From a virus (Duplodnaviria; Caudoviricetes): a stretch of DNA of 59,865 nt. The DNA lies in the IMG/VR virus record IMGVR_UViG_3300034196_000123, positions 1 through 59,865 of that record; one strand, written 5' to 3'. Shown in pieces: positions 1,865-58,361 of this stretch. The position numbers and the translations under genes are program-made. Each line of letters begins with the position of its first letter. Positions within the stretch are counted from its first letter, which is position 1. Below the pieces are notes generated by a model, which was not told the origin of the DNA, made no database searches, and saw only the letters and a program-made list of their open reading frames with translations.

Positions 1865-2281
1865 CTACTCGCCCGTCGCCGCCGTACCCGCGGAGCAGCG
1901 GGCGATGATCTCGTCGTTCATGCTGCGGCCGGCCGCGGCCGCGGCACGCTCCAGGTCGTCGCGCAGGGACTCGGGCAGGCGCAGCGGGAACCGCACGAGC
2001 TGTTCGCCGTGCTTGAGGGGCTGCCCCCGGCCGCGCCGCGGCGCAGGGCCGATGGCCTCCAGGGCTGCGGCGCGCTCGGCTCCCGGCTTGGTGGTGACGG
2101 GGCGGCCGGTGGCGGCGCGGGCCAGCTGCAGCCACAGCCGGGCCGTGGTCTCGGGCTCCACGTGGTCGGTGAGCACCGCGTCGAGAGCGGCGACGAGGGC
2201 GTGCGCTCGGGGGATCCGGTCCGCCTCGGGCAGGTCCCGGATGGCGGCGACCGCTCGGGACGCCTCGGTGAGGGTGGTCAC
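1865..2281 (-). CDS. Arc-like ribbon-helix-helix DNA-binding protein
   Basis: C-terminal VRFPLRLPESLRDDLERAAAAAGRSMNDEII matches the Arc/Mnt pattern. Confidence 0.8.
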   Translation of the reverse strand: MTTLTEASRAVAAIRDLPEADRIPRAHALVAALDAVLTDHVEPETTARLWLQLARAATGRPVTTKPGAERAAALEAIGPAPRRGRGQPLKHGEQLVRFPLRLPESLRDDLERAAAAAGRSMNDEIIARCSAGTAATGE

Positions 2282-9878: not shown

Positions 9879-12800
9879 GTGGCCGTCATCGCGTCGGACG
9901 CCTGCAGCGGTTCGAACGGTGACGCCCCATCGAGCAGGTGGACGGGCGGGACCACCCCGACCGCCGGCGGCGCCGTCAACATCCAGTCGGGCAAGCTGCG
10001 CTTCCTCAGCGGCACCAACGCCTCCGGGGGCGCGACCGACTGTGCATCACGGGTCCTGACGGGCGTCACCGCCCAGCAGGGCATGGAGTTGCGGTGCATC
10101 GTCCGCGTCGACACGTCCGGGAACCAGTCCGGGGTGGTGCTGCGCTGCGACTCCACGCTGTCCGACGCCACGGTGTCGGGGTACGCCCTGTCGATCGACG
10201 GCGGCACCGCCCTGTCGATCATCAAGTTCACCGGTGGGACCGGGACGTTCTCGCAGCTGGCGACGACCGCGTTCACCCAGAGCCTCAGCACGGACTACTG
10301 GCTGCTCGCCCGCGTCACCGGCACATCGTCGACCCTGATCCAGGCGAAGATCTGGGCCGTCGGGACCACCGAGCCGGGCAGCTTCACCACCTCGTTCACC
10401 GACACGACGTCCCCCATCACCTCCGGTGGCATCGGCGCCGTCGTGTTCGGTGGCGGCGGGACCGCCAAGTCCCTGTCCATCGGGTCGGTCACCGTCACCG
10501 ACGCCGGCGGCGGACCGATCATCCCGACCGTCGTGAAGCGGTGGTCGAGGTGGCGGCAGCACCTGGACCGCCGCGCCCGGCCCATGCTGCAGCGGATCCC
10601 CGACCAGACCGAGGCCTGGCCGACCGCCTGGGCGAACCGGGCGACCCAGCCGGCCGTGTGGCTGGCGATCGGCGACAGCATCACCGAGGGGCAGGGCGCG
10701 TCGGACCTCCCGGCCCGGTGGATCACACAGTGCCTGAACCTTCTGCGCTCGCGGGGCGGGAAGCCCACCAAGGGCGGCGCCGGGTACCTGCACGCCGCGT
10801 ACTACATCTACGGCCCCGACTCGGTGTGGACGACCTTCCTCCAGTACAACGGCGGCTCGGTCGGCGGTGCCCTGTACATCCCGGCGATCGGTGGTGCTGC
10901 CGCGGCGTCCGCGGCCGACCCCGACGGCATGACGTGGACGGTCACCGGGACGAGCGTCGACCTGTGGTACGTCGAGTCCACCGCACCCGGGTTCTACTAC
11001 TCGATCGACGGCGGCACCCCGGTGCTGGTCACTCCCGGGAACAACTTCCCCACCCCTCATAAGCTGCGGATCTCCCTCGGTGCGTCCGGTGTCCACACCG
11101 TCGACGTCTGGCAGACCGGCACCGGGGTCATGGGCTGGTGCGGGGTCACCGTTTACGACGGCGACGAGAACGCCGGGGTGGTCCTCATCGATGGCGGGCA
11201 CGTCGCGGCGTTCACCGCGGACCCGCTCACCACCTGGGGTAACAGGTCGTCCGCCTACGACCTGATGGCGACCTACGTCCTCGCGGCCCCCGACGTCGTG
11301 ACCCTGGAGCTCGGGGTCAACGACTGGTCCTCCAACGTCCCGCCGGCGACGGCAGCGGCGAACCTGTTGGTCACCATCCAGTTGCTGCAGTCGCTACCGA
11401 AGCGGCCCACGATCTGGCTCGTCGCGCCTGCCGCGTACGACGATGGCACGACCCAGACGTATCGGTGGACCGCCTACCTCGCGGCGATGCAGGCGGTGGC
11501 TGCGCAGACGGGTATCGGGTTCGTCGACGTCGGTCCGGTCCTCGGCTCGCCGACGAACACCGCGCTGTTCTCCGCCGATCAGATCCACCCGAACGACGCC
11601 GGGCACGCCCTCATGGGGCAGTTCATGTCGGGGGTCCTCGGCGGGAACCCGGACTACCCGCCCGCACCGCCGCGGCGTCGGCTGCCCCGGGCCTGGCGTC
11701 GGCGACCCACGACCACCCTGCGGCCCTTGTCGAGCGGCCCCACGGTCCCGTCGGTGACGGCCACCGAGACCCTCACCGTCACCGATACGGCGGCGCGCAC
11801 CCAGGCGGGCAGCCGGGCGGTCACGGAGACCCTGACCACCAGTGAGGTCGCGACCGCGCAGCCGACCAAGCCGCGGTCGGCCGCCGACGCGATCACCACG
11901 GTCGACGTGGTGGCCCGCACCTCGACGCGCCCGCGGGCCACCACCGACACGGTGTCGATCACCGACGGTGCGGTCGCGTCGGTCACCCGTGGCCGGACCG
12001 CCGCCGACACCCTGACCACCAGCGAGGGCATCACGTGGGCGCTCGCCGCCCGCGTCGCCGCCACCGACGGCATCAGCACCAGCGAGGTCCTCACCCGCTC
12101 GCGGACGTCGACCCGGGCCGTCACCGACCAGGTGACCGTCGGGGACGTCGCGACCGGCCCGGCCATCCGCACCGGCACGACCGTCGACACCCTGCAGCTG
12201 GCCGACGCCGTCCCGGTCCGGTCGACGAACCGGCCCCGGGCCGCCGGGGACACCCTGACCATCGCGGACGCCGCCGCTCGGGCCGCGTCGACCACGACCC
12301 GGACCGTCGTCGACTCCCTGACCGCCACCGATGCCACCAGCAGGGCCACGACGGGCCCCCGCAGCACCCTGGACGCCCTGGGCGTCGCCGACGTCCTGGT
12401 GCGCGCCTGGGCGCCCGCCAGGACCACCGTGGACACCCTCGGCGCCGGCGACACGGCCCGCCTGCAGGTCTCGTTCGTCCGGACAGTCGCGGACGCCGCC
12501 GCGCTCGCCGACACCCTCACCCGGACCGTGGCCCGCCCCCGGACCGCCGGCGACACCCTCACCGTCTTCGACGCCACCGGCCGGGCCCTGACCCTCGTCC
12601 GTGGCATCACCGACCCCCTGACCCTCACCGACACTGCCGGGCAGACGATCCTGCGGGGCCGGACCATCACCGACGCCCTCACCGCCACCGACGCCGTGAC
12701 CCGCGCGGTGCTCGAGCAGCGTGCCGCGGCCGACTCGTGGTCGACCAGCGACGTCACCGCCCGGTCGGTGCAGCTGGCCCGCGCCGTGCCCGAAGGCCTC

Positions 12801-13328
12801 GGCGTGGTCGACGTGGCCGCCCGGGCGCGCGCCGGCGGCCGGAGCGTCGTGGACGTGCTCGGCGTGGCGGACGCCGCGGCGGGGATCCGGTCCCTCGTGC
12901 GCGGCGCCGGCGACGCCGTGGTGTTCGCCGACGTGCCCGGCCGGACTCTCGTGGTCGCGCGGAGCAGCGTGGACGCGGTCGCGGTGGCCGACGCGGTGGC
13001 GAGGGGTCTGGCGCGGGTCGCCGCGGTGGTGGATGGCGTCGCCCTGGTCGACGTCGCCGCCCGGCCGGCGCTCGCCCGGGCCCGGGCCGGGGTGGACGTC
13101 GTCGCGGTCGCGGACGTCGTCGGGCGGGTCCTGACGCTGGTCCCGCGCGGTGGGGTGGACTCCCTGACCCTGGTCGAGGCGACGACCAGGGTCAGGGTCC
13201 AGTCCCGCACCGCGACCGATGGCCTGACGGTCGTGGACGTGGTGGTGTCGGTGCGGCCGCTGCGGGGGGTTCGGTCCCGGGTCATCACCCCGGGGGACGT
13301 CGGCACGATGCTGGGAGACGACCGATGA
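9879..13328 (+). CDS. Large fibre protein: lectin-like N-domain, SGNH/GDSL esterase, long ~20-aa repeat stalk
   Basis: SGNH blocks AIGDSITEG, ELGVND, DQIHPNDAGH; C-terminal half made of (T/A)D(T/A)L(T/G)xxD repeats. Confidence 0.8.
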   Translation: MAVIASDACSGSNGDAPSSRWTGGTTPTAGGAVNIQSGKLRFLSGTNASGGATDCASRVLTGVTAQQGMELRCIVRVDTSGNQSGVVLRCDSTLSDATVSGYALSIDGGTALSIIKFTGGTGTFSQLATTAFTQSLSTDYWLLARVTGTSSTLIQAKIWAVGTTEPGSFTTSFTDTTSPITSGGIGAVVFGGGGTAKSLSIGSVTVTDAGGGPIIPTVVKRWSRWRQHLDRRARPMLQRIPDQTEAWPTAWANRATQPAVWLAIGDSITEGQGASDLPARWITQCLNLLRSRGGKPTKGGAGYLHAAYYIYGPDSVWTTFLQYNGGSVGGALYIPAIGGAAAASAADPDGMTWTVTGTSVDLWYVESTAPGFYYSIDGGTPVLVTPGNNFPTPHKLRISLGASGVHTVDVWQTGTGVMGWCGVTVYDGDENAGVVLIDGGHVAAFTADPLTTWGNRSSAYDLMATYVLAAPDVVTLELGVNDWSSNVPPATAAANLLVTIQLLQSLPKRPTIWLVAPAAYDDGTTQTYRWTAYLAAMQAVAAQTGIGFVDVGPVLGSPTNTALFSADQIHPNDAGHALMGQFMSGVLGGNPDYPPAPPRRRLPRAWRRRPTTTLRPLSSGPTVPSVTATETLTVTDTAARTQAGSRAVTETLTTSEVATAQPTKPRSAADAITTVDVVARTSTRPRATTDTVSITDGAVASVTRGRTAADTLTTSEGITWALAARVAATDGISTSEVLTRSRTSTRAVTDQVTVGDVATGPAIRTGTTVDTLQLADAVPVRSTNRPRAAGDTLTIADAAARAASTTTRTVVDSLTATDATSRATTGPRSTLDALGVADVLVRAWAPARTTVDTLGAGDTARLQVSFVRTVADAAALADTLTRTVARPRTAGDTLTVFDATGRALTLVRGITDPLTLTDTAGQTILRGRTITDALTATDAVTRAVLEQRAAADSWSTSDVTARSVQLARAVPEGLGVVDVAARARAGGRSVVDVLGVADAAAGIRSLVRGAGDAVVFADVPGRTLVVARSSVDAVAVADAVARGLARVAAVVDGVALVDVAARPALARARAGVDVVAVADVVGRVLTLVPRGGVDSLTLVEATTRVRVQSRTATDGLTVVDVVVSVRPLRGVRSRVITPGDVGTMLGDDR

Positions 13329-28524: not shown

Positions 28525-28964
28525 GAACGGACGATCTTCAGGGGGAGCCGGAGCGGCTGTCCACAGCCCCTTCTGGTCCCCTTGGATCAGGGCCGGCCGT
28601 GCGCCACGATGGGCGGGCCGGCCCGGGCCGGTCACCCTCGGCGCCGCCTCCCCGCCCACCTGGCGGGGCGTGGCGCCCTCGGAAGCACAGCCCGGACCGG
28701 TCCCGTGCCAGACTGATCGTCGATCGCGCTGCGCGAGGTGCAGGGCAGCGCAGGGCCTGGTGGCGATGCGACACGTCACGGCAGCGCGGTCTGCGGGTCC
28801 CGGTGCATGGGAGCAGCAACGTGCGCGCCGTTCGAGTCGGAGGTCGGGACCCGCGTCCCCTCCCGGTCGTCGTGCCTGGAGCGACGAACCGCCCCGGGCG
28901 GCTACCCGGGGCGGTTCTTCCAGCGCTGACGAAGCTGGGGAGAGATCCATCGTAGCGGCGCCGG

Positions 28965-29673: not shown

Positions 29674-31014
29674 TCAGGCCGGGACCAGCGCCGCGGCGGG
29701 CGGGTCCTCGCCGTCATCCTCGCCGCGCTCGCCGGCGCCCTCGCCGGCGGTCTGGCCGGCATCCGGCGTGGGCGGGACGCCGTCCGGCCACAGCAGCTCG
29801 TCGACCCGCTTGGCGTTGGTGTCGAGCATCCCCGGGAGCAGGTGCTGGTACGTGTCCTGCGTCAGCTGGGTCTGGGAGTGCCCCAGCTGCTCCTTGACCT
29901 CGCGCACGTCGGCCTTCAGGAACAGCAGCAGCGACGCGGTGGTGTGCCGCAGGTCGTGGACCCGCAGGTCCGACTCGATCGGGTCATCGACGACGCTGCC
30001 GTCGCGCATCGTCCACGACTTCCCGGTACCCGAGGTCCGGACGCCCGCCTTGACGGCGAGGTCACGCAGGTTCTGCCAGTCCCGACGGGCGTCCAGCGGG
30101 TAACCACCGCGCTGGGCGAACACCAGGTCGGCGATCTCCTCCCAGCCGGGCGGCTGCCAGCCCTTCCAGTTCGCGCCGTCCTCGAGTTTCGCTACGCGCT
30201 GGGCGAGCCGGAGCCGCTTCAGGATGGGCAGCAGGTGCGCGGGGATGGGCAGGCGCCGGATCCCGGCGGTGGACTTCGGCGGAGTCAGCACGAGGTTCTG
30301 CCCACGGGGGCGGCCTCGTAGGCGGGTCAGTGACCGCCGGACCGTCAGGACGCCGGCGTCCAGGTCGACGTCGTCCCACAGCAGGCCGAGAACCTCGCCC
30401 TGGCGCAGGCCGAGGGCGATGGCGATGCCCCACCGGGCGTGCGCCGCGTCGTCGGTGCAGGCGCCCAGCAGGCGACGGCACTCCTCCACGGTCAGTGGCA
30501 TGACTTCCTCCCGGACGGCCGCGGGTGGCTGGACGAGCTTGGCGACGTTCATGCTGACTCGCTGCCGCTGCCAGGCGACCTGCAGGGCGCGGGCGAGGAT
30601 GCGGTGGCACTGCAGGATGGACGTCTCGGACAGCCCCGCCTCGCGCATCGTCGTGTGCAGCTGCTCGATGTGCTCGGGGGTCAGCTTGATCAGCCGGTGC
30701 CGTCCCACGTTCGGGATGATCCAGTTCCGGAGGTAGGAGCGGTACCCGTCGATGGTGCGGGGCCGGACCTTCGTCGGGGCGATGTTGTCGATCCAGTGGG
30801 TGAGCCACTGCTCGACGGTCGTCTTCGGGTCGTGGAGGGTCCCCCCGCGGGCCAGGACCGACTGTGCTTCCTGCAGCTTGGCCTTGGCCTCGGCGCGGTT
30901 CTTGGCCCGCAGGTACTTGCGGATCGGCTTGCCGTCGGCTGTCCACCCGACGTGGATCTGGACGCGCCATCCGGCGCCGCTCTTGTAGATCGAGCCTTCA
31001 CCCGGGGATCGCAT
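29674..31014 (-). CDS. int: Tyrosine integrase
   Basis: GLRQGE, PPKS, HDLRH, LGHS, TQDTY catalytic R-K-H-R-H-Y residues; N-terminal arm-binding GEGSIY. Confidence 0.95.
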   Translation of the reverse strand: MRSPGEGSIYKSGAGWRVQIHVGWTADGKPIRKYLRAKNRAEAKAKLQEAQSVLARGGTLHDPKTTVEQWLTHWIDNIAPTKVRPRTIDGYRSYLRNWIIPNVGRHRLIKLTPEHIEQLHTTMREAGLSETSILQCHRILARALQVAWQRQRVSMNVAKLVQPPAAVREEVMPLTVEECRRLLGACTDDAAHARWGIAIALGLRQGEVLGLLWDDVDLDAGVLTVRRSLTRLRGRPRGQNLVLTPPKSTAGIRRLPIPAHLLPILKRLRLAQRVAKLEDGANWKGWQPPGWEEIADLVFAQRGGYPLDARRDWQNLRDLAVKAGVRTSGTGKSWTMRDGSVVDDPIESDLRVHDLRHTTASLLLFLKADVREVKEQLGHSQTQLTQDTYQHLLPGMLDTNAKRVDELLWPDGVPPTPDAGQTAGEGAGERGEDDGEDPPAAALVPA

Positions 31015-35909: not shown

Positions 35910-36971
35910 GTGAGCCTGGAGGCCCTGGCGTGGGCGTTCGCCCAGAACCCCGGGGACAGCACCCGCAAGCTGGTGCTCTTGGCCTACGCCGACGTCGCGC
36001 AACGGGACGGGCAGGCGTACCTGCTGACGGAGCAGGTCGCCGAGACGGCGCTGTGCGCGGGCCGGACCGCGGGTCGGCACATCACCGCGCTGATCGCCGA
36101 TGGGTACATGCGTGAGGGTGACCAGAGCCTGATCAGCGACAAGATCCCGCGACGGTTCCGGCCGATCGTGTACCAGCTCGCGATGTCCGATGAGCAGCGC
36201 GAGGCGTGGGCGGCGACGCCGGTGACCGGTCGGCGGGCCCTGATGGTGGCCGGCGGGGCTCGCGGTGCCGAGTGGACGAACCGGACGAAGTCGGGCGCGA
36301 CCGAGGATGGTGGGGCGCCACCGGTGGCGCCTCACTCGTCGGACGGTGGGGCGCCACTGGTGGCGCCCCACGAAAACCCTCCCGAACCGGACGGAAATGG
36401 ACACGATGGGGCGCCAAGTGGGGCGCCATCCGTGGCGCCCAAGAACCTAAGAACCAAAGAACCAAACCACCACCACCACCGCGACGACGCGAACGTCCAC
36501 GAACTGGTGGTGGTGGAAGCCCTCCCGGACCACCCCGACCCCGCTGCGATCGCCTCGCAGATCGTGGCGGCCCTCCCCCGCCCGATCGCCCGGCACATCC
36601 ACGGCCCGACCCTGCGCACCGAGGCCACCCGCCTCGCCGCCCTCGGCTGGACCCCCGAGCAGCTCGCCGCCTGGACCCGGGAGGCGAACTGGGCCGGCGC
36701 CGGCCCGGCGCTCGTCACGTCTCGGCTGCGCGGCATCGACGGCCCGCCCCTACCCGCCCCGGTCCGGGCGCCCGTCCAGCTGACCCGCCTGTGCCCCGAC
36801 TGCGTCGCCAGCGGCGCCCAGGAGCCCTCGACCATCCCGGTCGGGGCCGTCGCCTGCCCCGAGTGCTCCGAGGGCCACCAGCGCCTCGACAAGGCCCGCA
36901 AGGGCACCCTCCGGGCCGAGGCCGCCGCCGCTCGAGCTGCCCGGGTCGCGCAGGTTGCGCCCGCGACCTAG
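35910..36971 (+). CDS. Replication initiator (N-terminal wHTH, RepA/lambda O-like)
   Basis: MSLEALAWA...KLVLLAYAD N-terminus; internal iterons; CxxC..CxxC near C-terminus. Confidence 0.8.
   Translation: MSLEALAWAFAQNPGDSTRKLVLLAYADVAQRDGQAYLLTEQVAETALCAGRTAGRHITALIADGYMREGDQSLISDKIPRRFRPIVYQLAMSDEQREAWAATPVTGRRALMVAGGARGAEWTNRTKSGATEDGGAPPVAPHSSDGGAPLVAPHENPPEPDGNGHDGAPSGAPSVAPKNLRTKEPNHHHHRDDANVHELVVVEALPDHPDPAAIASQIVAALPRPIARHIHGPTLRTEATRLAALGWTPEQLAAWTREANWAGAGPALVTSRLRGIDGPPLPAPVRAPVQLTRLCPDCVASGAQEPSTIPVGAVACPECSEGHQRLDKARKGTLRAEAAAARAARVAQVAPAT
36311..36468. repeat. Origin-like iterons TGGGGCGCCA plus A-rich tract
   Basis: Direct copies at 36311, 36347, 36407, 36419; inverted copies at 36325 (variant), 36361, 36433 (variant); then AAGAACCTAAGAACCAAAGAACCAAACC. 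Confidence 0.75.
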
Positions 36972-38521: not shown

Positions 38522-38874
38522 TGGCCGCCGTCCACGTTCCCTGCCCCGCGTGCGGGCAGGACGTCATCGAGATCACCGCCGAGTACCAGACCGGCACCGG
38601 GTCACGGCACGCGATGCCCGGCGTCCAGTACGTCGACCCCGACCCGTCCCCAGTGACCGGCGGGATCGTCCTGCCCGCCGACGGCCCCTGGACCGTCGTG
38701 CGGCCCTCCGTGGCCGCTGACGCCCCGGTCCGGCACCGGTTCCACCGCTGCCCGAACGCCCCCGCCGAGCCCCGCGCAGTCCGGGCACCCAAGCCCGCAC
38801 CGCCCCGCCAGCTCCCGCCCGACCTCGACGTCCCCGACATCACCGCGCCCCGCTACGGAAGGAACGCCCCGTGA
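38521..38874 (+). CDS. Hypothetical Zn-binding protein
   Basis: CPACG ... H.FHRCP; TGATG overlap. Confidence 0.65.
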   Translation: MAAVHVPCPACGQDVIEITAEYQTGTGSRHAMPGVQYVDPDPSPVTGGIVLPADGPWTVVRPSVAADAPVRHRFHRCPNAPAEPRAVRAPKPAPPRQLPPDLDVPDITAPRYGRNAP

Positions 38875-40619
38875 CCCTCGCCCCGCCCGCCCCCGACCCC
38901 CACGCCGGCCTCGGCGTCCTCATGCCCATCGACCAGATCAAGCCCAACGCGCGCAACGTCCGCCGGGACCTCGGCGACGTCACCGAGCTGGCCGACTCGA
39001 TCCGCGAGGTCGGCGTCCTGCAGCCCTGCACCGTCGCCCCGTCCACGACCGACCCGGTGCAGTGCCCGGAGTGCGACACCCTGTTCCCCGTCGACCAGCT
39101 CGTCGGCGGAGCCTTTCCGAGGCACTGGCGCTCGCCGCAGAGCCGGCGCAACTGCCGCGCGGGCACCGAGGCCGCCCCGATCACCTACGACCTGATCGCC
39201 GGGCACCGGCGCCTCGCCGCGTCCGTCCAGGCCGGCCACACCCACCTGCCGTGCGTCATCCGCGCCGACCTCACCGGCGTCGTGGACGTCACGGTCGCCA
39301 TGTTGTCGGAGAACCTGCACCGTGCCGACCTCTCCCCGATGGAGGAGGCCACCGCCTACGCGCAACTGCAGATCGCCGGCCTCGACGAGCAGACCATCGC
39401 CCGCCGCACCGGCCGGTCCCGCACCACCGTCGCCAGCCGCCTGAAGCTCATGGACCTCCCCGACCGGATGCAGGCCCGGGTCCACGAGCGGCAGATCACC
39501 CTGGACGAGGCCGCTGCCCTCGCCGAGTTCGCCGGCGACCCGGGGGCCCTCCGCGAACTGGAGCAGGCTGCCGGCACCCGCGACTGGCCCCACGCGCTGC
39601 GCCGGATGCGGGACAGCCGTGAGACCCGCCTGGAGCGGGAGCGGATGGTCGCCGATTTCGCTGCCCGCGGGTTCCGGGTCCTCGACAGCGGCGAGACGAG
39701 CGGGCTGTGGGAGCAGACGCTGCGCTCCCTCGACATCAGCGAGGACGACCACGCCCCGTGCGCCGGCCGCGCCGTGCACGTCACGCCGACCAACTTCGTC
39801 CAGAACTACTGCCTGGAGCCGTGGCTCCACGCCCCCGACCGGTTCCCCGACCCGGCCGCCCCGACCTACGACACCACGGCCCCAGCAGCCGGCGGCGACA
39901 CCACCGCCGCGACACAGCCGGCGCTGCCCACGGTCGCCCAGCAGGACGCCGAAGCCCAGGAACGCCGAGCCGCCGAGCAGGCCGAGGCCGCTGCGGCCGC
40001 GAAGGCCGCGTTCGCCGTCCGGCAGGAGTTCCTCGAGACCTTCTGCCGTGACCGCCGCCCGGTGCCCGCCGACCAGGGCGCGGCGGTGCTTCGGCACCTG
40101 CTCGACCTGCTGACCCGCGCCTACCTCGGCGAGGTCGTGATGCAGGACTGGCTCCACATCCTCACCGGCGAGGACGTGGCCGACGTGGACGACGACGCCG
40201 CCGAGACCAAGGTCCGGGCCATCGTCGCGGAGCGGGACCCGATCCGGGTGCTGCTCGCCGAGCTCGCGGTCGAGTCCGACCGGCTGGTGTACCCGGCGCA
40301 CTGGGGTCCGTCGCCGCTGGGCAGCCACCTGCCGTTCCTGCAGTCCCTGATCGCCGTGGGGTACGTGCCCTCGACGTGGGAGCAGGAGCGCATCGACGCG
40401 GCGCTCGCCTACCGCACCCGGGTGGAGTCGCCGGCGGTCGTGGACGTCCGCCTCCCCGAGCACGACGTCCCCGCCGACGTCGACCAGGCCGACAGCGACG
40501 ACGAGGCGACCTCCGGCACCTGCCGGGTGTGCTTCTGCACCGACGACGAGGCGTGCGACCCGCCGTGCTCCTGGGCCGACGCCGAGCACACCATCTGCAC
40601 CGCCTGCACGGCGGGCTGA
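38871..40619 (+). CDS. ParB/Spo0J-like protein
   Basis: ELADSIREVGVLQP, LIAGHRRLAA, ENLHRADLSPMEEA, HTH; Cys-rich C-terminus. Confidence 0.85.
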   Translation: MTLAPPAPDPHAGLGVLMPIDQIKPNARNVRRDLGDVTELADSIREVGVLQPCTVAPSTTDPVQCPECDTLFPVDQLVGGAFPRHWRSPQSRRNCRAGTEAAPITYDLIAGHRRLAASVQAGHTHLPCVIRADLTGVVDVTVAMLSENLHRADLSPMEEATAYAQLQIAGLDEQTIARRTGRSRTTVASRLKLMDLPDRMQARVHERQITLDEAAALAEFAGDPGALRELEQAAGTRDWPHALRRMRDSRETRLERERMVADFAARGFRVLDSGETSGLWEQTLRSLDISEDDHAPCAGRAVHVTPTNFVQNYCLEPWLHAPDRFPDPAAPTYDTTAPAAGGDTTAATQPALPTVAQQDAEAQERRAAEQAEAAAAAKAAFAVRQEFLETFCRDRRPVPADQGAAVLRHLLDLLTRAYLGEVVMQDWLHILTGEDVADVDDDAAETKVRAIVAERDPIRVLLAELAVESDRLVYPAHWGPSPLGSHLPFLQSLIAVGYVPSTWEQERIDAALAYRTRVESPAVVDVRLPEHDVPADVDQADSDDEATSGTCRVCFCTDDEACDPPCSWADAEHTICTACTAG

Positions 40620-48519: not shown

Positions 48520-48996
48520 TCAGGCGTTGCCCGTGGCGATCGCCCGGGCCGTGGTGCCGGGCGTCAGGACGTCCCGGGCCAGGCGCAGCGCCTCGTCGTA
48601 CGTGAAGCGGGTGACCGCCAGGTGTTTGGGGGTCCGCTCGCTGGGTCGGGGGTCGAGCGTCCAGTACGCCATGGCCGTCAGGACCTGCTGCGGGTCCCGG
48701 GTCGGGCTGATCGTCCAGCCGCCGGCGCTCTGGCGCAGCCACAGCTGCCGCACCGGGGCGGTGTCGGCGAGACTGGGGTTGGTGAGCTGGACCTCGGTCG
48801 TGACCGGCTCGATGGCCGGCGCCGCGGTGTCCTCGTCCGGGCCTGTCCGCGGTGCGCCGGACAGGGTCTGGTCGGCGTAGTGCGGCACGCCGGGGATGAG
48901 GGTGCCGGTGGAGTCGCAGTGCAGGCAGCCGATGCCGGTTGGGGTGCCCTGGCACTGGGGGCAGGTGACGGCGGTGGGGTCGGAGATGAGGTTCAT
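48520..48996 (-). CDS. Hypothetical protein with DnaJ-like CxxCxG zinc motif
   Basis: GGAGG RBS; CPQCQG..GCLHCDSTG. Confidence 0.65.
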   Translation of the reverse strand: MNLISDPTAVTCPQCQGTPTGIGCLHCDSTGTLIPGVPHYADQTLSGAPRTGPDEDTAAPAIEPVTTEVQLTNPSLADTAPVRQLWLRQSAGGWTISPTRDPQQVLTAMAYWTLDPRPSERTPKHLAVTRFTYDEALRLARDVLTPGTTARAIATGNA

Positions 48997-49055
48997 GGTC
49001 GTGTCCCTCCGGGTGGTGTTCGGGGTGCGGGGCGGGGTGGTCACGCCCTCCGCAT

Positions 49056-49105
49056 GTGGAACACATTACGCGCCATGATGAGTGTGCGCAATACGGGTGG
49101 AACAC
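49056..49105 (-). promoter_or_regulatory. Leftward promoter flanked by GTGGAACAC direct repeats
   Basis: Minus strand TTGCGC-N17-TAATGT (49091-49063); repeats at 49056 and 49097. Confidence 0.65.
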
Positions 49106-49106
49106 T

Positions 49107-49316
49107 TTACTCGGGCTGTGCGTCGATCTCCGGGCTGTGCGCGTCCAGCGCAGCCTCCACCTCGCGCAGCCGCCAGATCCGACCTGCGCGCAGCTCAGCC
49201 ACCGGCGCCGGCCACCACGCTGTGCGGGTGAGCGCGTCGACCCGCTGACGGGACACCGTGCGGCCGCGCGCAGCCAGCAGCTCGCGCACCTCCGCTACCC
49301 CGACCAGCGCCTCCAC
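49107..49316 (-). CDS. AlpA-like small DNA-binding protein
   Basis: LVGVAEV..LL....VSRQRV..L....WPAPVAELRAGRIW. Confidence 0.75.
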   Translation of the reverse strand: MEALVGVAEVRELLAARGRTVSRQRVDALTRTAWWPAPVAELRAGRIWRLREVEAALDAHSPEIDAQPE

Positions 49317-49679
49317 GTCGCGCAGCGTACCTGCGCGACCCACCTGCGCGGGCCCCTGTGCGGCCACCTGTGCGCCGCACAGCCCTGCGCGGGCCTCCCG
49401 ACTGTGCGCCGCACAGCCCTACCCTGTGCGGCGCACAGCCGGGCGCACAGGGGTTGCGGGTTGACAACCCCCCGACTGTGCGCGCACAGTGGATCCGCTA
49501 GCCCAGCTAGCGACCACGTGTAGCACGACGAGCGACGCGCAGCGTCCGCTCAGCCCCGGCGCACAGCCCGCCGCACATCCACCCCCGCGCACAGCCCGCA
49601 CACCTGGAGCCCCCGTGCCCAACCCCGCACACCCGGGCGCACAGCCGCCCGCACAGCCCGACGCGCAGCCCGCGCAGCC
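49114..49679. repeat. GCACAGCC 8-mer array 1 (clt/TRS-like)
   Basis: Exact copies at 49377, 49411, 49433, 49561, 49589, 49639, 49651 (+) and 49114, 49133 (-), plus many CTGTGCG/GCGCAGCC variants. Confidence 0.8.
49461..49512 (+). promoter_or_regulatory. Transfer-module promoter with 17-bp operator
   Basis: TTGACA-N18-CACAGT then CGCTAG-CCCAG-CTAGCG (49496-49512). Confidence 0.65.
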
Positions 49680-49998
49680 CGTGAACGGCGCCGCGCAGGC
49701 CGCCCGCCACGCCGCCGTCGCCCACGCGCACGCCGCGACCCCCGCCCGGCTGCCCTGGTACGCCGGACCCCGCGTCCGCGCCATCACCGCCGCGGCCGCC
49801 GCGTTCCTGGCCCTCGACCTAGGCGTCATGGGCTCGACCCTGACGTCCACCGGCCTGCTCCGCCTGGTCCTGCTCACCGCGATCGCGTTCGTCGTCGTCC
49901 GCGTCACCTGGCGCCCGTACCTCGCCGCCCTCCGCTCGTCCCTGCACGTCACCCGCCCCACCGCCACCTCGAGCTCCACCGGCGACCGGGACGCCTGA
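49615..49998 (+). CDS. 2-TM membrane protein (Spd-like)
   Basis: TGGAG RBS; two hydrophobic helices; first gene after promoter. Confidence 0.65.
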   Translation: MPNPAHPGAQPPAQPDAQPAQPVNGAAQAARHAAVAHAHAATPARLPWYAGPRVRAITAAAAAFLALDLGVMGSTLTSTGLLRLVLLTAIAFVVVRVTWRPYLAALRSSLHVTRPTATSSSTGDRDA

Positions 49999-50216
49999 TG
50001 GCCGGCCACCCGGACACCGACGTCGAGGTCTGGCGGCGTCAGGGCAAGCGTCGCCGCCTGCTCACGACCCGCCGGCCCGTCGAGGCGAAGGACACCCCGC
50101 AGACCCGCGTGGTGATCCAGGAGGCGTGCCGGGTGGCCCGCGTCCCGTGGTCCGACCTGGAGGTCCGCGTCCGGATCCCCAGGTCGGCCCGCTGGGAGAC
50201 CTTCTACGTCGACTAG
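49998..50216 (+). CDS. Small basic hypothetical protein
   Basis: TGATG overlap; 72 aa. Confidence 0.6.
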   Translation: MAGHPDTDVEVWRRQGKRRRLLTTRRPVEAKDTPQTRVVIQEACRVARVPWSDLEVRVRIPRSARWETFYVD

Positions 50217-50372
50217 TGCCCTGACCTGCCCGGATGCCCTGTTGTCGGGTTGTTGGTGTCCGGGCCCTCCCTTACGCGCAGGCGCGCGCCCGACAAACAT
50301 CCCGCCCCGATCGGGGCTGGGACCGACAGGCGGACCCGCCGGCCTCCGACAGGCGGGAGAGGGGAGAACCCC

Positions 50373-50822
50373 GTGTCGTCCTGGGCCGTGTTCGCCATCT
50401 CGGTGGTCGCAGCGTTCGCCCTGCACTGGCTCTCCGGGGAGTTCCACCCGCCACGGATCGGGACGTGGGTCGAGCTGACCCTGTCCGTCCTCGCTGGCAT
50501 CTGCGCGGTGTCCGCGTCGGTGCTGGCCGTCGACCAGGGCTGGCTCATGGGGACTCTGTCGACGCTGGCCCGGGCCGAACCGGTCCGGATCTTCTTCGGC
50601 CTGGTCGCCTGCGCCGTCCCGCTGTGGTTCCTGCTGGCGATGCTCCCGGCGTCGTGGTCCCGGTTCGGGATCTCCTACCTCGCGCTCGCCGTGTTCATCA
50701 TCTCGGTCCCCCTGCAGGCGTACGCCTTCTCGGGGAAGGTCCCGCACGGCATCAGCGTCGGGACCGTCGAGACGGCGCAGCAGTTCAGGGCGATCACCCG
50801 TGACTGGTGGGTGCGTGCCTGA
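50373..50822 (+). CDS. 4-TM membrane protein (Spd-like)
   Basis: GGGGAG RBS; four hydrophobic segments. Confidence 0.7.
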   Translation: MSSWAVFAISVVAAFALHWLSGEFHPPRIGTWVELTLSVLAGICAVSASVLAVDQGWLMGTLSTLARAEPVRIFFGLVACAVPLWFLLAMLPASWSRFGISYLALAVFIISVPLQAYAFSGKVPHGISVGTVETAQQFRAITRDWWVRA

Positions 50823-51793
50823 TGGACCCCATCTCGATCACGATGATCCTGCTGCTCGCCGGGTGCGGGGCCACGTGGCTCGACAACCGGTGGGACGCCG
50901 CGATGGAACGTGTGCGCGGCGGCCAGCCCACGAACCCGTGGGCCCGCCCGATCCCGACGCCGGTGCGCGCAGCCGCACAGCACGCTGTGCGCGCTGGCCG
51001 CGCAGCCGCCGTCGAGCACCGCGGCAGCGGCAACGGGACCTGGCGGCCGGCGCCCGAGGCGGCGCACAGCTCGGTCCCGCACAGCACCGACGACCCGGCA
51101 CCCGTCCCCGTCGCGAAGCCGCACAGCGGCCCGGTCGCACAGCCCGGTCCGCGCGCAGCCCGCGCAGGTGTGCGCGTGTGGTTCGGCGCAGGTGTCGAGG
51201 CTGTGCGCGAGGGGACGCGCGCAGCGCCCGAGGGGTGGCGGGCCGGTGCACAGCCGGTCCCGTCGCCACGGACCCCGGACCCTGCGCCCGACCCCGCGCC
51301 CGCGCAGCCACCCGCACAGCCCGTCCCCGTGCAGCCCGCTGCGCCCGCACAGCCCGACGCACAGCCGCCCGCACAGCCCACCGGCGACCAACCGGCCGCC
51401 ACCGCACCGACCGCAGGAGACCCCATGGGAGAGCTCGGACCCATCCCCACCGAGATCGCCGACCACGCCACCCTCATCCAGGTGTTGCGCCGCGTCGGTG
51501 CCGCGATCGAGGACGACATGGGCGCCGCCGGCGGCGGCATCCGCTCCCTGATCGCCAAGCTCGCCGAGCTGGCCACCAAGGCGCAGGCGGTCCGGACGCT
51601 GCCCGAGCGGTGCACCCCGGACATCGGGGGCCCCACCCAGGGCCGCCTCGACGAGCAGGCCGCCCAGGCCGCGCTCCTGCACCGCCGTGTCACCGAGGCG
51701 ATGGACCAGCTCGGTGCGCTGCAGGCCGACCTGCAGCACCTCGCCGAGGCCACGACCGGCGCCCAGCAGACCGCGACCGCCGCACGCGGCTGA
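50822..51793 (+). CDS. Membrane-anchored Pro/Ala/Gln-rich protein with helical C-domain (TraA-like position)
   Basis: MDPISITMILLLAG N-terminus; directly upstream of TraB-like gene. Confidence 0.7.
   Translation: MDPISITMILLLAGCGATWLDNRWDAAMERVRGGQPTNPWARPIPTPVRAAAQHAVRAGRAAAVEHRGSGNGTWRPAPEAAHSSVPHSTDDPAPVPVAKPHSGPVAQPGPRAARAGVRVWFGAGVEAVREGTRAAPEGWRAGAQPVPSPRTPDPAPDPAPAQPPAQPVPVQPAAPAQPDAQPPAQPTGDQPAATAPTAGDPMGELGPIPTEIADHATLIQVLRRVGAAIEDDMGAAGGGIRSLIAKLAELATKAQAVRTLPERCTPDIGGPTQGRLDEQAAQAALLHRRVTEAMDQLGALQADLQHLAEATTGAQQTATAARG
50967..51378. repeat. GCACAGCC 8-mer array 2
   Basis: Exact copies at 51137, 51248, 51314, 51347, 51359, 51371 (+) and 51199 (-), plus GCACAGC variants in other reading frames. 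Confidence 0.75.
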
Positions 51794-51831: not shown

Positions 51832-53769
51832 ATGACCCGGACCCACGACCGGCACGCCGACGTCGAGTCGCGCCGTCAGGCCCGCCGGTGGCGGCGCCTG
51901 GAGCGTCGCCTCGACGGCCGGCCCTGGCACCAGCGTCTGTGGTGGGTCCGGGGCCCCGTCCTGCTGGCCCGCGCCGTCCGGCGGATCGTCGCCCTGGTCG
52001 TGTCCCTGCCGGGTCGGCGCCGGCGGTTCGGCTGGCCCCTGCTGGCCGCTGTCGCGGCCGCGGTGCTCGTCGCGCCGCTGCCGTGGGCGCTCGCCGCCGT
52101 CCTCGCGGTGGCCGCGGCGTGGCTGCGGGAACGCCGCGGCGGACCTCGCCGGGTCGTGTCCGACCGGGAGGCGTGGCTGTGGGCCGGCGCGCTCGCCGTC
52201 GTGGCCGTCGCGCAGCAGCTGCTCGACGGCCGCCCCTGGTGGGCCGCCCCGGCCGCGACCATCCCGACGTCCGTCGCGTGGATCTGGGGGAGGCGTACCC
52301 GCCGCCCGGGCCGCTTCGAGCAGGCGTGGGCGGAGCACGTCGCCGGCGAGCAGGATTGGGCCCGGTCGACGGTGCGGGACGTCCGGGTGAAAGTCGACCG
52401 GAAGGGATACCCCGACGGCACGTTCACCCTGGTCGTCGCGAAGGGGCAGACCGCGAAGGACGTTGCCACGAAGGGCGACGAGCTGGCCTCCCACCTGGCC
52501 GACGCCTTCCCGGTGCTCACCGCTGGGTCACTGATGGTGTCCCACGGGCACGGCGACCCGATCCGGCAGGCCCGCGTCGCGATCGCGAACCCGCGCCGTC
52601 AGGCGGAGCCCCGGTACTGGCGGGAGCCGTCCCTCGACGAGCGGACCGGGCTCTACCAGATCGGCGACACGATGCACGACGGGTCCCGGGCCCAGATGTG
52701 GCAGCACGCCGGCGGCGTCAACACCGTCGCCGTCGGCGGCCCAGGGAAGGGCAAGGGCGGCTTCACCGTCGTCACGGACGTCGAGGCTGCGATCAGCCGC
52801 CACGTGGTCCTGATCGTGCTGGACGGGAAGCGGGGCGCCGGTGTGCCCGCGCTGCGCTACGGAGCGTCCCTGTACGCCCGGACCCCCGGGCAGTGGATCG
52901 TCGCGTGGGACGCCGCCATGACGATCATGCGGATGCGCGCCGACGAGTACGGCGAGGCAGGCAAGTCGCTGTGGTCCCCGCAGTCCGACCCGCTCATCAA
53001 GGTCACGTGCGACGAGTGGCGGTACATCCACCGTGCCTGGCCGCAGATGCGCGAGGACGCCGTCTGGTGGACCGGGCAGACCAGAAGCTACGGCGGGCAC
53101 CTGCACCTCAACCTGCACCGCGGCGACGGCGACGGCTACGGCGACACCGAGATCAGAAGCAACATGTACGCGAACGGTCAGGCGTGGATCGGTCCGCAGG
53201 GCGACCTGTCCGCGGAGAACTGCGCCGTCCAGTCCTGGGGCGTCAAGCCCGCGACCCTGCCCCCGTACCCCGGGTGGGGCGACCTCTGCCAGACGATCAA
53301 CGGGGACGTCGGCTCCGCGGTCCGCGCGAAGAACCTGTGGCTCCCCACGAACGCCGAGGTCGCCGAGTTCGGTGTCCCCGCCCCCCACGGCACCGCCGAC
53401 GACATCATCCGGGAGCACGCCGTGTTCCCGTCCCTGCCGCCGGCGATGCAGGCCGTCCTCGACACCGCCCGGGAGGCGATCGAGTCCGGCCGCGCCGACC
53501 AGCCCGAAGCGGTCGAGGAAGCCCGGGAGCGGGCCGCCGCGACCCAGGGCCGCCCCGAGACCGTGGACGCCCTGATCCTCGCCGCGCTCGCCAACGCCCC
53601 CGACCAGGCCGCCGGCGCCACCGACCTGGCGAAGGCCATCGGCCGTGACCGCGCCTACGTGCAGGAGCGCCTCACCGTGCTCCGCGACACCGGGCGCGTC
53701 CTGCAGGAGGGCCCCCGCCGCCCGTACCGCCTACCCGCCCCCGCCCAGGAACTGGAGCCCGCCTCGTGA
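51832..53769 (+). CDS. traB: TraB/FtsK-SpoIIIE-like membrane DNA translocase
   Basis: GAGGAGG RBS; N-terminal TM helices; Walker A VGGPGKGKG, LDGKRG, Walker B IKVTCDE, Arg-finger region TRSYG, IRSN; C-terminal winged HTH (ATDLAKAIG..RAYV..RL..L..TGRV...YRL). Confidence 0.75.
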   Translation: MTRTHDRHADVESRRQARRWRRLERRLDGRPWHQRLWWVRGPVLLARAVRRIVALVVSLPGRRRRFGWPLLAAVAAAVLVAPLPWALAAVLAVAAAWLRERRGGPRRVVSDREAWLWAGALAVVAVAQQLLDGRPWWAAPAATIPTSVAWIWGRRTRRPGRFEQAWAEHVAGEQDWARSTVRDVRVKVDRKGYPDGTFTLVVAKGQTAKDVATKGDELASHLADAFPVLTAGSLMVSHGHGDPIRQARVAIANPRRQAEPRYWREPSLDERTGLYQIGDTMHDGSRAQMWQHAGGVNTVAVGGPGKGKGGFTVVTDVEAAISRHVVLIVLDGKRGAGVPALRYGASLYARTPGQWIVAWDAAMTIMRMRADEYGEAGKSLWSPQSDPLIKVTCDEWRYIHRAWPQMREDAVWWTGQTRSYGGHLHLNLHRGDGDGYGDTEIRSNMYANGQAWIGPQGDLSAENCAVQSWGVKPATLPPYPGWGDLCQTINGDVGSAVRAKNLWLPTNAEVAEFGVPAPHGTADDIIREHAVFPSLPPAMQAVLDTAREAIESGRADQPEAVEEARERAAATQGRPETVDALILAALANAPDQAAGATDLAKAIGRDRAYVQERLTVLRDTGRVLQEGPRRPYRLPAPAQELEPAS

Positions 53770-54599
53770 CCCGCCTCCGTGCCCACCTCGACCGGGGCCG
53801 CGGCATCTGCTACCTCGTCATGCTCATCGCAGGCGGGATCTCGATCTACGCGAACGTCGCGTTCCAGCTGATCGAGCGCGCCGAAGATGGGACGTGGATG
53901 CCCCGCCGCGACCCGCACCTCGACGCGATGGCGCTCGCCGCGGCCGCGCCGATCCTGCTGTGGGCGACCCTGGAGGTCCTGATCCGGGTGGAGGGCCGCG
54001 GCCTGGCCGCGTGGACGGTCCGGGTCGGCACCACCCTGGTCGCGGCCGCGTCGTTCATCGCGTCGTTCCAGAACATCCGGAACCTGCTGCTGTCGTTCGG
54101 GGACTCCCAGCTGACCGGCTGGACGTACCCGCTCGGCATCGACGGTGCACTCGTCGCGGCCGCCGCGGCGCTGTGGCAGATCCGCGTCACCGCCACCGCC
54201 GCGCCGGCCGCCGCGGTGGGGGAGGCCCCGGCCGTGGAGGCGCCGCGCTCGCCCGCTGAGCCGCGCCGCCGCAAGGCCGCCGAGCCGCTGCCCGCCGCGG
54301 CGCCCACCGAGGCGCCGACCACACCAGCGGTGGACCCGGCCCCGGTCCCCGCCGCGGCACCCACCCCGCCGCCGGCGCCCCGCCCCCGCGCAGTCACCGC
54401 CCGCCCGGCCGCCGCCGTCCAGCCCGACACCAACGCGCGGGACGCCCGGATCCGGGCCCTCGCCGCCGAAGGCAACGGCCGACCCACCGTCGCCCGGACC
54501 CTCCGCGACGAGGGCTACTCGATCTCCGACACCGACCTCGCGACGATGCTCCGCCAGTTGCGCGCCGAGACCGAGGGGAGGGCCGAGCAGCATGCCTGA
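53766..54599 (+). CDS. DUF2637 / SpdA-like membrane protein with C-terminal HTH
   Basis: ISIYANV, AAAPILL, ASFIASF.NI..L...GD......YPLGIDG.LV signature. Confidence 0.8.
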   Translation: MTRLRAHLDRGRGICYLVMLIAGGISIYANVAFQLIERAEDGTWMPRRDPHLDAMALAAAAPILLWATLEVLIRVEGRGLAAWTVRVGTTLVAAASFIASFQNIRNLLLSFGDSQLTGWTYPLGIDGALVAAAAALWQIRVTATAAPAAAVGEAPAVEAPRSPAEPRRRKAAEPLPAAAPTEAPTTPAVDPAPVPAAAPTPPPAPRPRAVTARPAAAVQPDTNARDARIRALAAEGNGRPTVARTLRDEGYSISDTDLATMLRQLRAETEGRAEQHA

Positions 54600-56840: not shown

Positions 56841-58361
56841 GTGGCGCTGACCGCGTGGGCCGCGGCACGGCGCCGCTACCAGCCCGCACCCCGACGGTTC
56901 TCGAGCCCGTTGGAGTACGGGCGCGCGGTCATGCCCAAGATGGTCGTCACGCCGGCGCTGCAGCTCATCTCCGACGCCCTGGTGGCCGTCGAGGCGGGTG
57001 ACATCGACCGGCTGCTGGTGTCGATGCCCCCGCAGGAGGGCAAAAGCTCCACCGTCGACCGGCTGGGCATCGGGTGGGCGCTGAGCTGCCAGCCGCTGCT
57101 GCAGTGCGGCATCGCGTCGTACAGCGACCGCCTGGCGACCAGGTGGTCCAGGAGGATCCGCAACGACATCCAGGCCAGCAACCGCCGCGGCGGTGTCGAC
57201 CTCGGGCTGCAGCTGGCCCCGGACCAGTGGGCGGCGGACGACTGGCGCCTCGCGAACGGCATCGGCGGGGTCTACGCGGCGGGCATCGGGGGCCCGTGGT
57301 CGGGGTTCCCGCTCGACCGGCTGGTCGTGGACGACCCGCACAAGAACCGCAAGGAAGCCAACAGCACGATCATGCGGGACGCCGTGTACGACTGGTACAC
57401 GTCCGCGGGCACCGCGCGGCTGTCGGCCGCAGGCCGGATCGTGATGGTGATGACCCGGTGGCACTGGGACGACCTGGCGGCCCGGGTGCTCGACGCGGAC
57501 AAGGTCGGCCGATGGCACGTGATCAACATTCCGGCGCAGGCCGACCCGGAGATCGCCGACCCTGACCCCCTCGGCCGCACCCCCGGCGTCTACATGATCT
57601 CCGCGCAGGGGCGCACCGAGGAACAGTGGGAGAAGCGCAAGGAAGAGGCCGCGGAAGAGTGGACGCCCCTGTACCAGGGCGCCCCGGCCGACCCGGGGAA
57701 GAAGTTCTTCGACCTGAGCAAGATCCGCTGGTGGCACCTGTCCCGCGACGGCAAGCAGATCATCTGCGGGCCGCAGACGTGGAACCTGCACGACTGCTGG
57801 CGGTTCGCCACGGTGGACACCGCGAACACCGAGAAGGCGGGCAGCGACTTCACCGTCGTGTCCGCGTGGGCGATCCCCCCGGACGGGTCCCTCGTGCTCC
57901 TGGACGTCGCCCGGGAGCAGCTCAACGAGGACAAGCAGCTCGGCCTCGCGCGGCCCCTGGTGGAGCGGTGGGCCCTCGACGTCGTCTACGTCGAGGCCAG
58001 CATGCGCGGCACCCTGCTGGTCCGCCAGGCCGTCGCTGAGGGCTGGCACATCGAGGACCTGCACGCCGACCGGTCCAAGACGCTGCGCGCGGCGCCGGCG
58101 GCCCGGCTGGTCCGGCACGGCCGGGCATGGTTCCCCGCCGAGCACGAACACCTGATCGTGATCAAGAAGGAGATGAAGCAGTTCCCGGCCAGCAAGCACG
58201 ACGACTTCGTGGACACCTTCGGCTACGCGAGCCTCGTGCGGCACACCGACTGGGCGCCGCCGCTGACGGGCCGGCCCCCGGCATCGGACCCGGCGCTCGC
58301 CGAGCTGCGGGCCGCGACCCCCGACGCGGACGGGTTCGACCCGATGGACACGCCGTTCTGA
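56841..58361 (+). CDS. terL: Terminase large subunit
   Basis: MPPQEGKS Walker A, LVVDDPHK Walker B, TRWH.DD, LYQG.P, VDTA, FP..KHDDFVD. Confidence 0.95.
   Translation: MALTAWAAARRRYQPAPRRFSSPLEYGRAVMPKMVVTPALQLISDALVAVEAGDIDRLLVSMPPQEGKSSTVDRLGIGWALSCQPLLQCGIASYSDRLATRWSRRIRNDIQASNRRGGVDLGLQLAPDQWAADDWRLANGIGGVYAAGIGGPWSGFPLDRLVVDDPHKNRKEANSTIMRDAVYDWYTSAGTARLSAAGRIVMVMTRWHWDDLAARVLDADKVGRWHVINIPAQADPEIADPDPLGRTPGVYMISAQGRTEEQWEKRKEEAAEEWTPLYQGAPADPGKKFFDLSKIRWWHLSRDGKQIICGPQTWNLHDCWRFATVDTANTEKAGSDFTVVSAWAIPPDGSLVLLDVAREQLNEDKQLGLARPLVERWALDVVYVEASMRGTLLVRQAVAEGWHIEDLHADRSKTLRAAPAARLVRHGRAWFPAEHEHLIVIKKEMKQFPASKHDDFVDTFGYASLVRHTDWAPPLTGRPPASDPALAELRAATPDADGFDPMDTPF

Follow-up and report, generated by a model that had tools for sequence, protein, structure and literature searches.

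A bipartite array of short repeats upstream of a TraB-like gene in a temperate tailed phage: a candidate clt-like locus

The repeat array and its surroundings

The linear IMG/VR virus record IMGVR_UViG_3300034196_000123 was analysed over its whole length of 59,865 nt (hereafter the window), which has a G+C content of 73% and an estimated completeness of 81% (CheckV). The analysis centres on a dense array of short repeats at 49114-51378, which lies upstream of a gene for a TraB-like protein of 645 amino acids (aa), and on the genes around it. An initial annotation had described the array as a candidate locus of transfer that acts in cis (clt), on which the TraB-like protein would load. The surrounding module at 48.5-56 kb consists of an open reading frame (ORF) with CxxC motifs and an AlpA-like gene, both on the minus strand, a non-coding divergent region, and a plus-strand operon that ends with a DUF2637 gene; this order was derived from ORF lists and from the phase of G+C at third codon positions (GC3). 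The features of the module are the following (HTH, helix-turn-helix).

48520-49044, minus strand: CxxC ORF of 158-174 aa with a CPQC...CLHC zinc-finger-like N-terminus, co-oriented with the AlpA-like gene
49107..49367, minus strand: small AlpA-like HTH gene, divergent from the operon (homologues, alignment and GC3 phase)
49114..49692: repeat cluster 1, about 29 CGCRCAG sites, 17 plus and 12 minus, extending over the AlpA-like gene (3' end and body), intergenic DNA and the 169-aa ORF in its 5' part
49368-49382, 49402-49416 and 49424-49438: three perfect palindromes CTGTGCG-N1-CGCACAG
49461-49466: perfect TTGACA box, 9 bp ahead of the last palindrome
49476-49489: perfect palindrome CTGTGCGCGCACAG, the fourth of the core
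49489..49998, plus strand: 169-aa ORF, small membrane protein by hydropathy, likely start GTG 49615 after GGAG
49998..50216, plus strand: 72-aa ORF, function not assigned
50250..50822, plus strand: polytopic membrane protein by hydropathy, likely start GTG 50373
50822..51793, plus strand: 323-aa ORF, of which the N-terminal Pro/Ala-rich part bears cluster 2
50966..51378, plus strand: repeat cluster 2, 16 sites within one mismatch of CGCACAGCC, 14 plus and 2 minus
51832..53769, plus strand: TraB-like protein, 645 aa, FtsK-type motor
53766..54599, plus strand: DUF2637-matching membrane protein, 277 aa

Exact copies of GCACAGCC, counted on both strands, number 19 in the window, 16 of them inside 49114-51378 and the other three at 28685, 34457 and 59179; 100 dinucleotide-preserving shuffles gave a mean of 4.83 copies (sd 2.05, maximum 9). 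Word counts indicate that the conserved core extends one base further left and is CGCACAGCC, that is, CGCACAG(CC). When up to one mismatch is allowed, 35 of the 70 sites for CGCACAGCC in the window are packed into the array, which makes up 4% of its length. Shorter forms of the word behave similarly, with 28 of 36 matches to CGCACAG and 29 of 46 matches to GCACAG falling within 49050-51420, as do 12 of 37 matches to the A-to-G variant CGCGCAGC. The degenerate form CGCRCAG has 114 sites in the window, 48 of which lie inside the array (33 plus, 15 minus).

The array is divided into two clusters, 49114-49692 and 50966-51378, and the 1.27 kb separating them holds two CGCRCAG sites only, both of the G variant. 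Sites are in minus or mixed orientation left of about 49480 and nearly all plus to the right. Neighbouring plus-strand CGCRCAG sites most often have a gap of 12 bp, as in 6 of 32 cases; this spacing recurs in runs within cluster 2, and Tandem Repeats Finder reported several period-12 mini-arrays together with period-9 tandem runs. Both clusters precede the TraB-like gene by 0.45-2.7 kb in the direction of its operon, and cluster 2 is located 450-870 bp upstream of the start of that gene. The initial annotation had counted at least 16 exact copies by hand, in two clusters with this change of orientation; its count of 16 proved exactly right for 49114-51378, and both the clusters and the switch near 49480 are seen in the word positions. 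The k-mer enrichment scan that it had suggested as a check was run in 4-kb tiles; the array word scored 28.9, and no word of another tile scored above 14.9.

The control tile with the highest score in that scan contains six plus-strand copies of GACACCCT at 12006-12552, spaced by multiples of 3 inside an ORF of 1149 aa with a GDSL-lipase domain; this looks like a protein-level repeat of a tail or fibre protein.

Patterns built from the array word were also searched for in other collections. Three copies of GCACAGCC occur together at no fewer than 119 loci in unrelated viral contigs, and a tblastn search with 18 window proteins found no relatives of the module at these loci, so the triple pattern is unspecific. 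The double-palindrome pattern had 0 matches in genome contigs and 0 in viral contigs, and cluster 1 gave chance-level matches only against a plasmid collection (blastn).

Selection on the array at the DNA level

The sites are not tied to a reading frame. Within the 323-aa ORF three sites are in codon phase 0, three in phase 1 and ten in phase 2, and within the 169-aa ORF the corresponding numbers are one, one and seven; across the three genes that carry sites all three phases are used, and further sites lie in non-coding DNA at 49368-49489. Read in the coding direction the word specifies Ala-Gln-Pro, His-Ser or Arg-Thr-Ala, and the AQP repeat at the N-terminus of the 169-aa ORF is encoded by motif copies. 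Codon choice points the same way. GCA is a rare alanine codon in 16 reference genes of the element (39 of 1231 alanine codons, 3.2%). In the N-terminal part of the 323-aa ORF, which carries the array sites, it accounts for 16 of the 41 alanine codons (39%; binomial p = 5e-14), compared with one of 24 in the remainder of the same ORF. In the AlpA-like protein the alignment diverges from the family consensus precisely where two motif copies fall, the C-terminal tail being replaced by the sequence that they encode.

Selection thus acts on the array at the level of DNA, as follows from the sites in non-coding DNA, the use of all three phases in three genes and the enrichment of a rare codon. This agrees with the initial annotation, which had drawn the same conclusion from copies in intergenic DNA and in different reading frames. 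Of the 30 genic sites, 26 follow the coding strand; both orientations are found in the non-coding stretch. This suggests that either orientation would work and that coding tolerance selects the orientation inside genes.

Neighbouring genes and the palindromic region

The four perfect palindromes of the core occupy the divergent region between the AlpA-like gene and the operon. The last of them would cover the -10 region of a putative promoter headed by the TTGACA box, although a strict consensus promoter scan returned 0 sites at the palindromic region. Homologues of the AlpA-like protein are HTH proteins of about 60 aa, named AlpA or prophage regulatory protein in their sources, and because of their length the true start of the gene is probably downstream of 49367. 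One contig of 11.8 kb encodes an identical AlpA-like protein. The window protein had no match in Pfam, NCBIfam or PDB.

Most proteins of the module were without a match in Pfam, PHROG or NCBIfam, and no family match was obtained for the CxxC ORF or for the 169-aa ORF. Family searches detected no Rep-like gene in 48.5-56 kb. Small membrane proteins, recognised by hydropathy, flank the TraB-like gene. The stop codon of the polytopic membrane protein overlaps the ATG of the 323-aa ORF, the helical C-terminal part of which, from an in-frame ATG at 51425, is conserved in two metagenomic relatives described below. The same ORF begins with MDPISITMILLLAGCG (50822-50870), a putative signal peptide that has a lipobox-like LAGC and no positively charged n-region. 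Downstream of the TraB-like gene, the 277-aa DUF2637 protein may be a candidate spread-type partner, DUF2637 being presumably linked to SpdB, although a literature search found no paper with both terms. When this protein was compared with SpdB of plasmid pIJ101 by BLASTP, the match covered 68 residues with E no better than 0.006. No Pfam family is matched by pIJ101 SpdB, and tblastn with the 277-aa protein gave no match in plasmid or phage collections.

The TraB-like protein and its relatives

By profile, fold and architecture, the 645-aa protein is a genuine, very divergent TraB-type translocase. In its motor, the P-loop reads GxxGxGKG and the Walker B motif is DE; two further regions can be delimited.

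Residues 65-98: membrane segment, from a Kyte-Doolittle scan rather than a dedicated transmembrane predictor
Residues ~575-635: C-terminal winged helix

The window protein itself had no direct ATPase match in Pfam, NCBIfam or PHROG, and the assignment draws on its family. Pfam FtsK_SpoIIIE (PF01580) was matched by 23 of 70 aligned family members, and many members match winged-helix families. The family profile matched EccC (1e-32), FtsK (8e-15) and TcpA (4e-11) in PDB, and its positions 553-650 matched winged helices of ArsR, MarR, LexA and Z-alpha. Alignment with pIJ101 Tra by hhalign gave a probability of 98.6% and E = 9e-16 over 396 columns, extending through the C-terminal HTH. An AlphaFold2 model (pLDDT 91, pTM 0.79) contains long N-terminal helices and, at residues 578-632, three helices with a beta wing; Foldseek ranks FtsK motor domains as its best PDB matches, with E of about 1e-11. 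Of the features that characterise a TraB/clt system, the locus thus has an FtsK/SpoIIIE motor, a C-terminal winged helix, an N-terminal membrane segment and repeats beside the gene, and in place of a divergent GntR-type TraR/KorA it has the AlpA-like HTH gene.

The family is rare. Only three close homologues were found among 5.8 billion clustered proteins, the closest of them being encoded on a 21.8-kb contig, 62% identical and sharing the stretch RAYVQERL in the predicted recognition helix (residues ~596-619 of the window protein). A profile search recovered 91 cluster representatives, and neither viral contigs nor genome contigs contained relatives. Metagenomes yielded two short contigs, L009 and L010, which are near-copies of each other and count as one observation. 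Their TraB-like protein is 57-60% identical to the window protein, and ahead of it these contigs encode a homologue of the 323-aa ORF in its C-terminal part. The N-terminal residues of the predicted recognition helix of their TraB-like protein differ. An 8-mer picked post hoc, CACCGCGA, is enriched in these contigs, with 10-11 copies compared with 0.56 in first-order simulations (maximum 4 in 200). Copies at 12-bp spacing directly follow the 3' end of the gene (L009 2634-3394; L010 2271-2976), and L009 has 26 near-copies, 11 of them around and just beyond that end. CACCGCGA might be a different recognition word in these relatives, which is suggestive only.

The carrier is a temperate tailed phage

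Genes for a protease, a capsid protein, an amidase and an exonuclease are present in the window, together with the following features outside the module.

1865-2281, minus strand: Arc/CopG-type ribbon-helix-helix protein, between terminase and portal on the opposite strand
2799-5093: Mu-type portal
9879-13328: GDSL-domain protein of 1149 aa
27157-27897, minus strand: GntR/UTRA regulator
29674-31014, minus strand: tyrosine integrase
35910-36971: lambda-O-like replication initiator
38871-40619: ParB-like protein, 582 aa, ParB_N and HTH_ParB, phrog_6218
56841-58361: large terminase

The nearest terminases, at 37% identity or less, are those of Arthrobacter and related actinophages, in which the terminase is gene 1 or 2; this would place the 48.5-56 kb module at the right end of the phage map. 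In the record the terminase lies close to the right end, the portal close to the left one and the integrase in the middle, so the gene order is of the virion type or permuted, not one that results from a cut at att sites. A comparison of the two 1.5-kb ends showed no terminal overlap of at least 16 nt. Inside the initiator gene, at 36305-36443, three 31-nt repeats are built on the palindrome GTGGGGCGCCACYGGTGGCGCCCCAC and probably represent the phage ori, an origin within the O gene being the classic arrangement. Beside the ParB-like gene there is no evident site array, and no ParA gene was detected.

An actinomycete integrative and conjugative element (AICE) would have Int, Rep and Tra without virion genes. 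Here the three modules are represented by the tyrosine integrase, the O-like Rep and the Tra-like gene, but a portal, a protease, a capsid protein, an amidase and a large terminase are encoded as well, and the integrase gene lies mid-record rather than at an end. The carrier is a temperate tailed phage, neither a plasmid nor a classical AICE, a point absent from the initial annotation.

A candidate loading array for the TraB-like translocase

We favour reading the two clusters as a bipartite clt-like loading array for the adjacent phage TraB-like translocase, probably serving as an operator as well, and hold this reading with about as much belief as doubt. It is argued for by the concentration of exact and near copies (16 of 19 and 35 of 70) in 2.3 kb upstream of the TraB-like gene, and by the fact that other DNA-binding genes have no array nearby, the GntR, integrase and ParB-like regions holding isolated near-copies only. 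A further argument is that the core equals the reported clt repeat of plasmid pJV1, given in a passage of PMC3583192 as nine 9-bp repeats CCGCACA[C/G][C/G] with two inverted-repeat pairs; of the 18 matches to this consensus in the window, 14 fall inside the array. More generally, clt regions are described in part of PMC4447253 as holding direct 8-bp repeats that the cognate TraB recognises. That L009 and L010 differ from the window both in the recognition helix and in the enriched 8-mer also hints at a word read by the TraB-like protein.

Under the favoured reading, the C-terminal winged helices of a membrane-anchored, hexameric FtsK-type motor would bind the 9-bp CGCACAGCC sites, often 12 bp apart, and binding would load the motor onto the double-stranded element. 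The motor might then pump DNA across a septum or a cell-cell contact, so that the phage or prophage genome could spread without a virion. Occupancy of the array would probably also repress the operon through the palindromes overlapping the putative promoter, the repressor being either the same TraB-like protein or the divergent AlpA-like protein. We infer both the identity of the binding protein and any transfer.

Several observations weigh against this reading. The two clusters together hold 35-48 sites, several times the size of the clt loci described in the excerpt of PMC3583192, which have 4-9 repeats within 200 bp or less. The pJV1 motif is known to us second-hand from that excerpt and was compared by its published consensus only; the sharing could be due to chance, the probability of such a match to one of the few published clt words being a few in a thousand by a rough estimate, and it cannot be ascribed to close kinship because the relation to pIJ101 Tra is at profile level only. 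The TraB-like protein had no tblastn match in plasmid or phage collections, and the usual GntR partner of a kil-kor pair is not adjacent, the GntR/UTRA gene lying 21 kb away. In L009 and L010 the 0.5-0.85 kb covered upstream of the gene contain no dense CGCACAG array, and for enrichment CACCGCGA reaches the same score as the top control tile of the window without exceeding it. Finally, palindromes placed at a TTGACA box beside a divergent HTH gene look like an operator. The clt interpretation in the initial annotation is thus supported in part: the TraB-like neighbour, the clt form of the repeats (short, direct and clustered), the pJV1 core and the codon signature of selection on DNA speak for it, and the competing operator, the oversized array and the phage carrier limit it.

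Alternative explanations

The array as an operator only is a serious rival and ranks second, although we think it somewhat unlikely to be the whole explanation. The AlpA-like HTH protein or another phage regulator would bind the palindromes and half-sites cooperatively, with TraB uninvolved, and would silence a toxic tra/spread operon, much as the kil-kor pair does in function. Four perfect palindromes within a divergent region of 120 bp, the last of them over the -10 position after a perfect TTGACA, are what such a switch might look like, and the gene adjoining the array has homologues named as prophage regulators; traB-traR pairs of Streptomyces plasmids, called kil-kor systems in the passages of PMC4447253, provide a precedent. 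A simple operator would, however, hardly require more than 30 additional copies up to 2 kb away, in coding DNA and at a cost in codon usage. Four viral loci with distant AlpA-like genes had neither an array nor a TraB-like gene within the 6 kb examined, the core matches a clt repeat while no operator match was found, and the strict promoter scan was negative at this site. A less probable version of DNA binding would assign the array to the 582-aa ParB-like protein or to an immunity repressor, as a centromere-like or silencing platform for partition and spreading or as a stoperator-style roadblock. The ParB_N and HTH_ParB domains of that protein, which lacks an adjoining array of its own, fit such a role, as does the excess of genic sites on the coding strand, since stoperators are sites co-oriented with transcription. 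The ParB-like gene is nevertheless 9 kb away, no ParA was found, the element has an integrase, and the sites are clustered rather than genome-wide; the strand bias is explained more simply by the peptides that a disordered linker tolerates, both orientations being present in the non-coding DNA.

We attach very little weight to the view that the array has no DNA-binding role and is low-complexity DNA, generated by slippage, that encodes Pro/Ala/Gln-rich linkers. The period-12 and period-9 runs and the frequency of the triple-GCACAGCC pattern in unrelated viral contigs would suit slippage, whereas both orientations, non-coding DNA, three phases in three genes, four exact palindromes and the consistent use of the rare GCA codon would not. 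Equally improbable is a second replication origin with iterons for some other initiator: the passage of PMC3583192 on plasmid pWTY27 describes iteron origins as composed of short repeats in direct and inverted arrangement, but the lambda-O-like gene has three unrelated 31-nt iterons of its own and the module has no detectable Rep-like gene. Those iterons rule out the array as the main origin. An RNA element was rejected after Rfam gave 0 matches in the window, and attP arm sites for an AlpA-like excisionase are unlikely because there is no array near the integrase gene.

Implications

A tentative and rather doubtful extension of the favoured loading-array reading is that the phage, a temperate tailed actinophage, has domesticated a complete Streptomyces-type dsDNA conjugation unit, comprising a highly divergent TraB, membrane partners and an oversized bipartite array, which would allow virion-free spread of the genome between hyphae or cells and in which the array would be both loading site and autoregulatory operator, written into the codons of disordered linkers of the transfer proteins at the expense of rare codons. 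Conjugation of the TraB type has been described in Streptomyces plasmids and in AICEs, and to our knowledge clt sites have been experimentally defined for only a handful of plasmids. If the reading is true, a rare TraB family, barely recognisable by sequence, and a tailed phage would come under the rule of a repeated 8-9-bp word read by a translocase, a virus would have a second, virion-free route of spreading, and the locus would show how a cis-acting site is overlaid on coding DNA by codon choice. Should the array be an operator instead, its size and clear definition as a regulatory array would still be unusual for an operon of the kil type. The presence of tra/FtsK-like genes in actinomycete phage-type genomes already has precedents in pZL12 and P1312 ORF63.

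Comparison with known systems

According to passages on them, pZL12 is a Streptomyces plasmid-phage whose transfer needs a major tra gene (PMC3583192, PMC4487206), and ORF63 of the Thermobifida phage P1312 is FtsK/SpoIIIE-like (PMC4569894). These are, like the present record, actinomycete phage-type genomes with a tra/FtsK-like gene, but the 645-aa protein has no tblastn match to either in phage or plasmid collections, and the passages mention no clt-type array. A literature search, poor in subscription journals, returned no paper describing such an array in a phage genome, and one made with the motif itself gave irrelevant papers only.

FtsK and its KOPS (FtsK orienting polar sequences) offer another parallel, in that an FtsK motor fold goes together with the reading of an 8-bp word by a winged helix. 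KOPS motifs, however, are chromosome-wide with skewed polarity, whereas the word is here confined to 2.3 kb, with three exact copies in the other 57 kb. The kil-kor systems with TraR or KorA share with the phage locus a regulator divergent from the tra operon and repeated sites between the two (excerpts of PMC4447253; pIJ101 map), although the divergent gene is here an AlpA-like HTH gene of about 60 aa and not GntR.

Closer in mechanism are TraB of pSVH1 and TraA of pWTY27, membrane-anchored FtsK-like hexamers that read repeated 7-8-bp words, and the protein architecture in the phage matches theirs. The portions of the literature that deal with them report that pSVH1 TraB contacts its repeats via helix 3 of the winged helix (PMC4447253, PMC3583192) and that the footprint of pWTY27 TraA covers repeats at and beyond the 3' end of its gene (PMC3583192); in a passage on pSTVU1 the repeats are located between korB and traB (PMC11600335). 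In pSVH1 and pWTY27 the clt falls within the tra gene or adjoins it, and specific binding has been demonstrated, whereas the words differ from the one described here, the phage array lies upstream and overlaps a putative promoter and coding DNA, and its sites are candidates recognised from sequence.

The nearest counterpart is the clt of pJV1. It has nine repeats, compared with 35-48 sites here in two clusters 1.3 kb apart, and the carrier here is a tailed phage with a TraB-like protein too divergent for a tblastn match in plasmids. Yet the core is the same, (C)CGCACAGC(C) in the phage and CCGCACA[C/G][C/G] in the plasmid, inverted-repeat pairs accompany it in both, and each set of repeats goes with a translocase of the TraB type.

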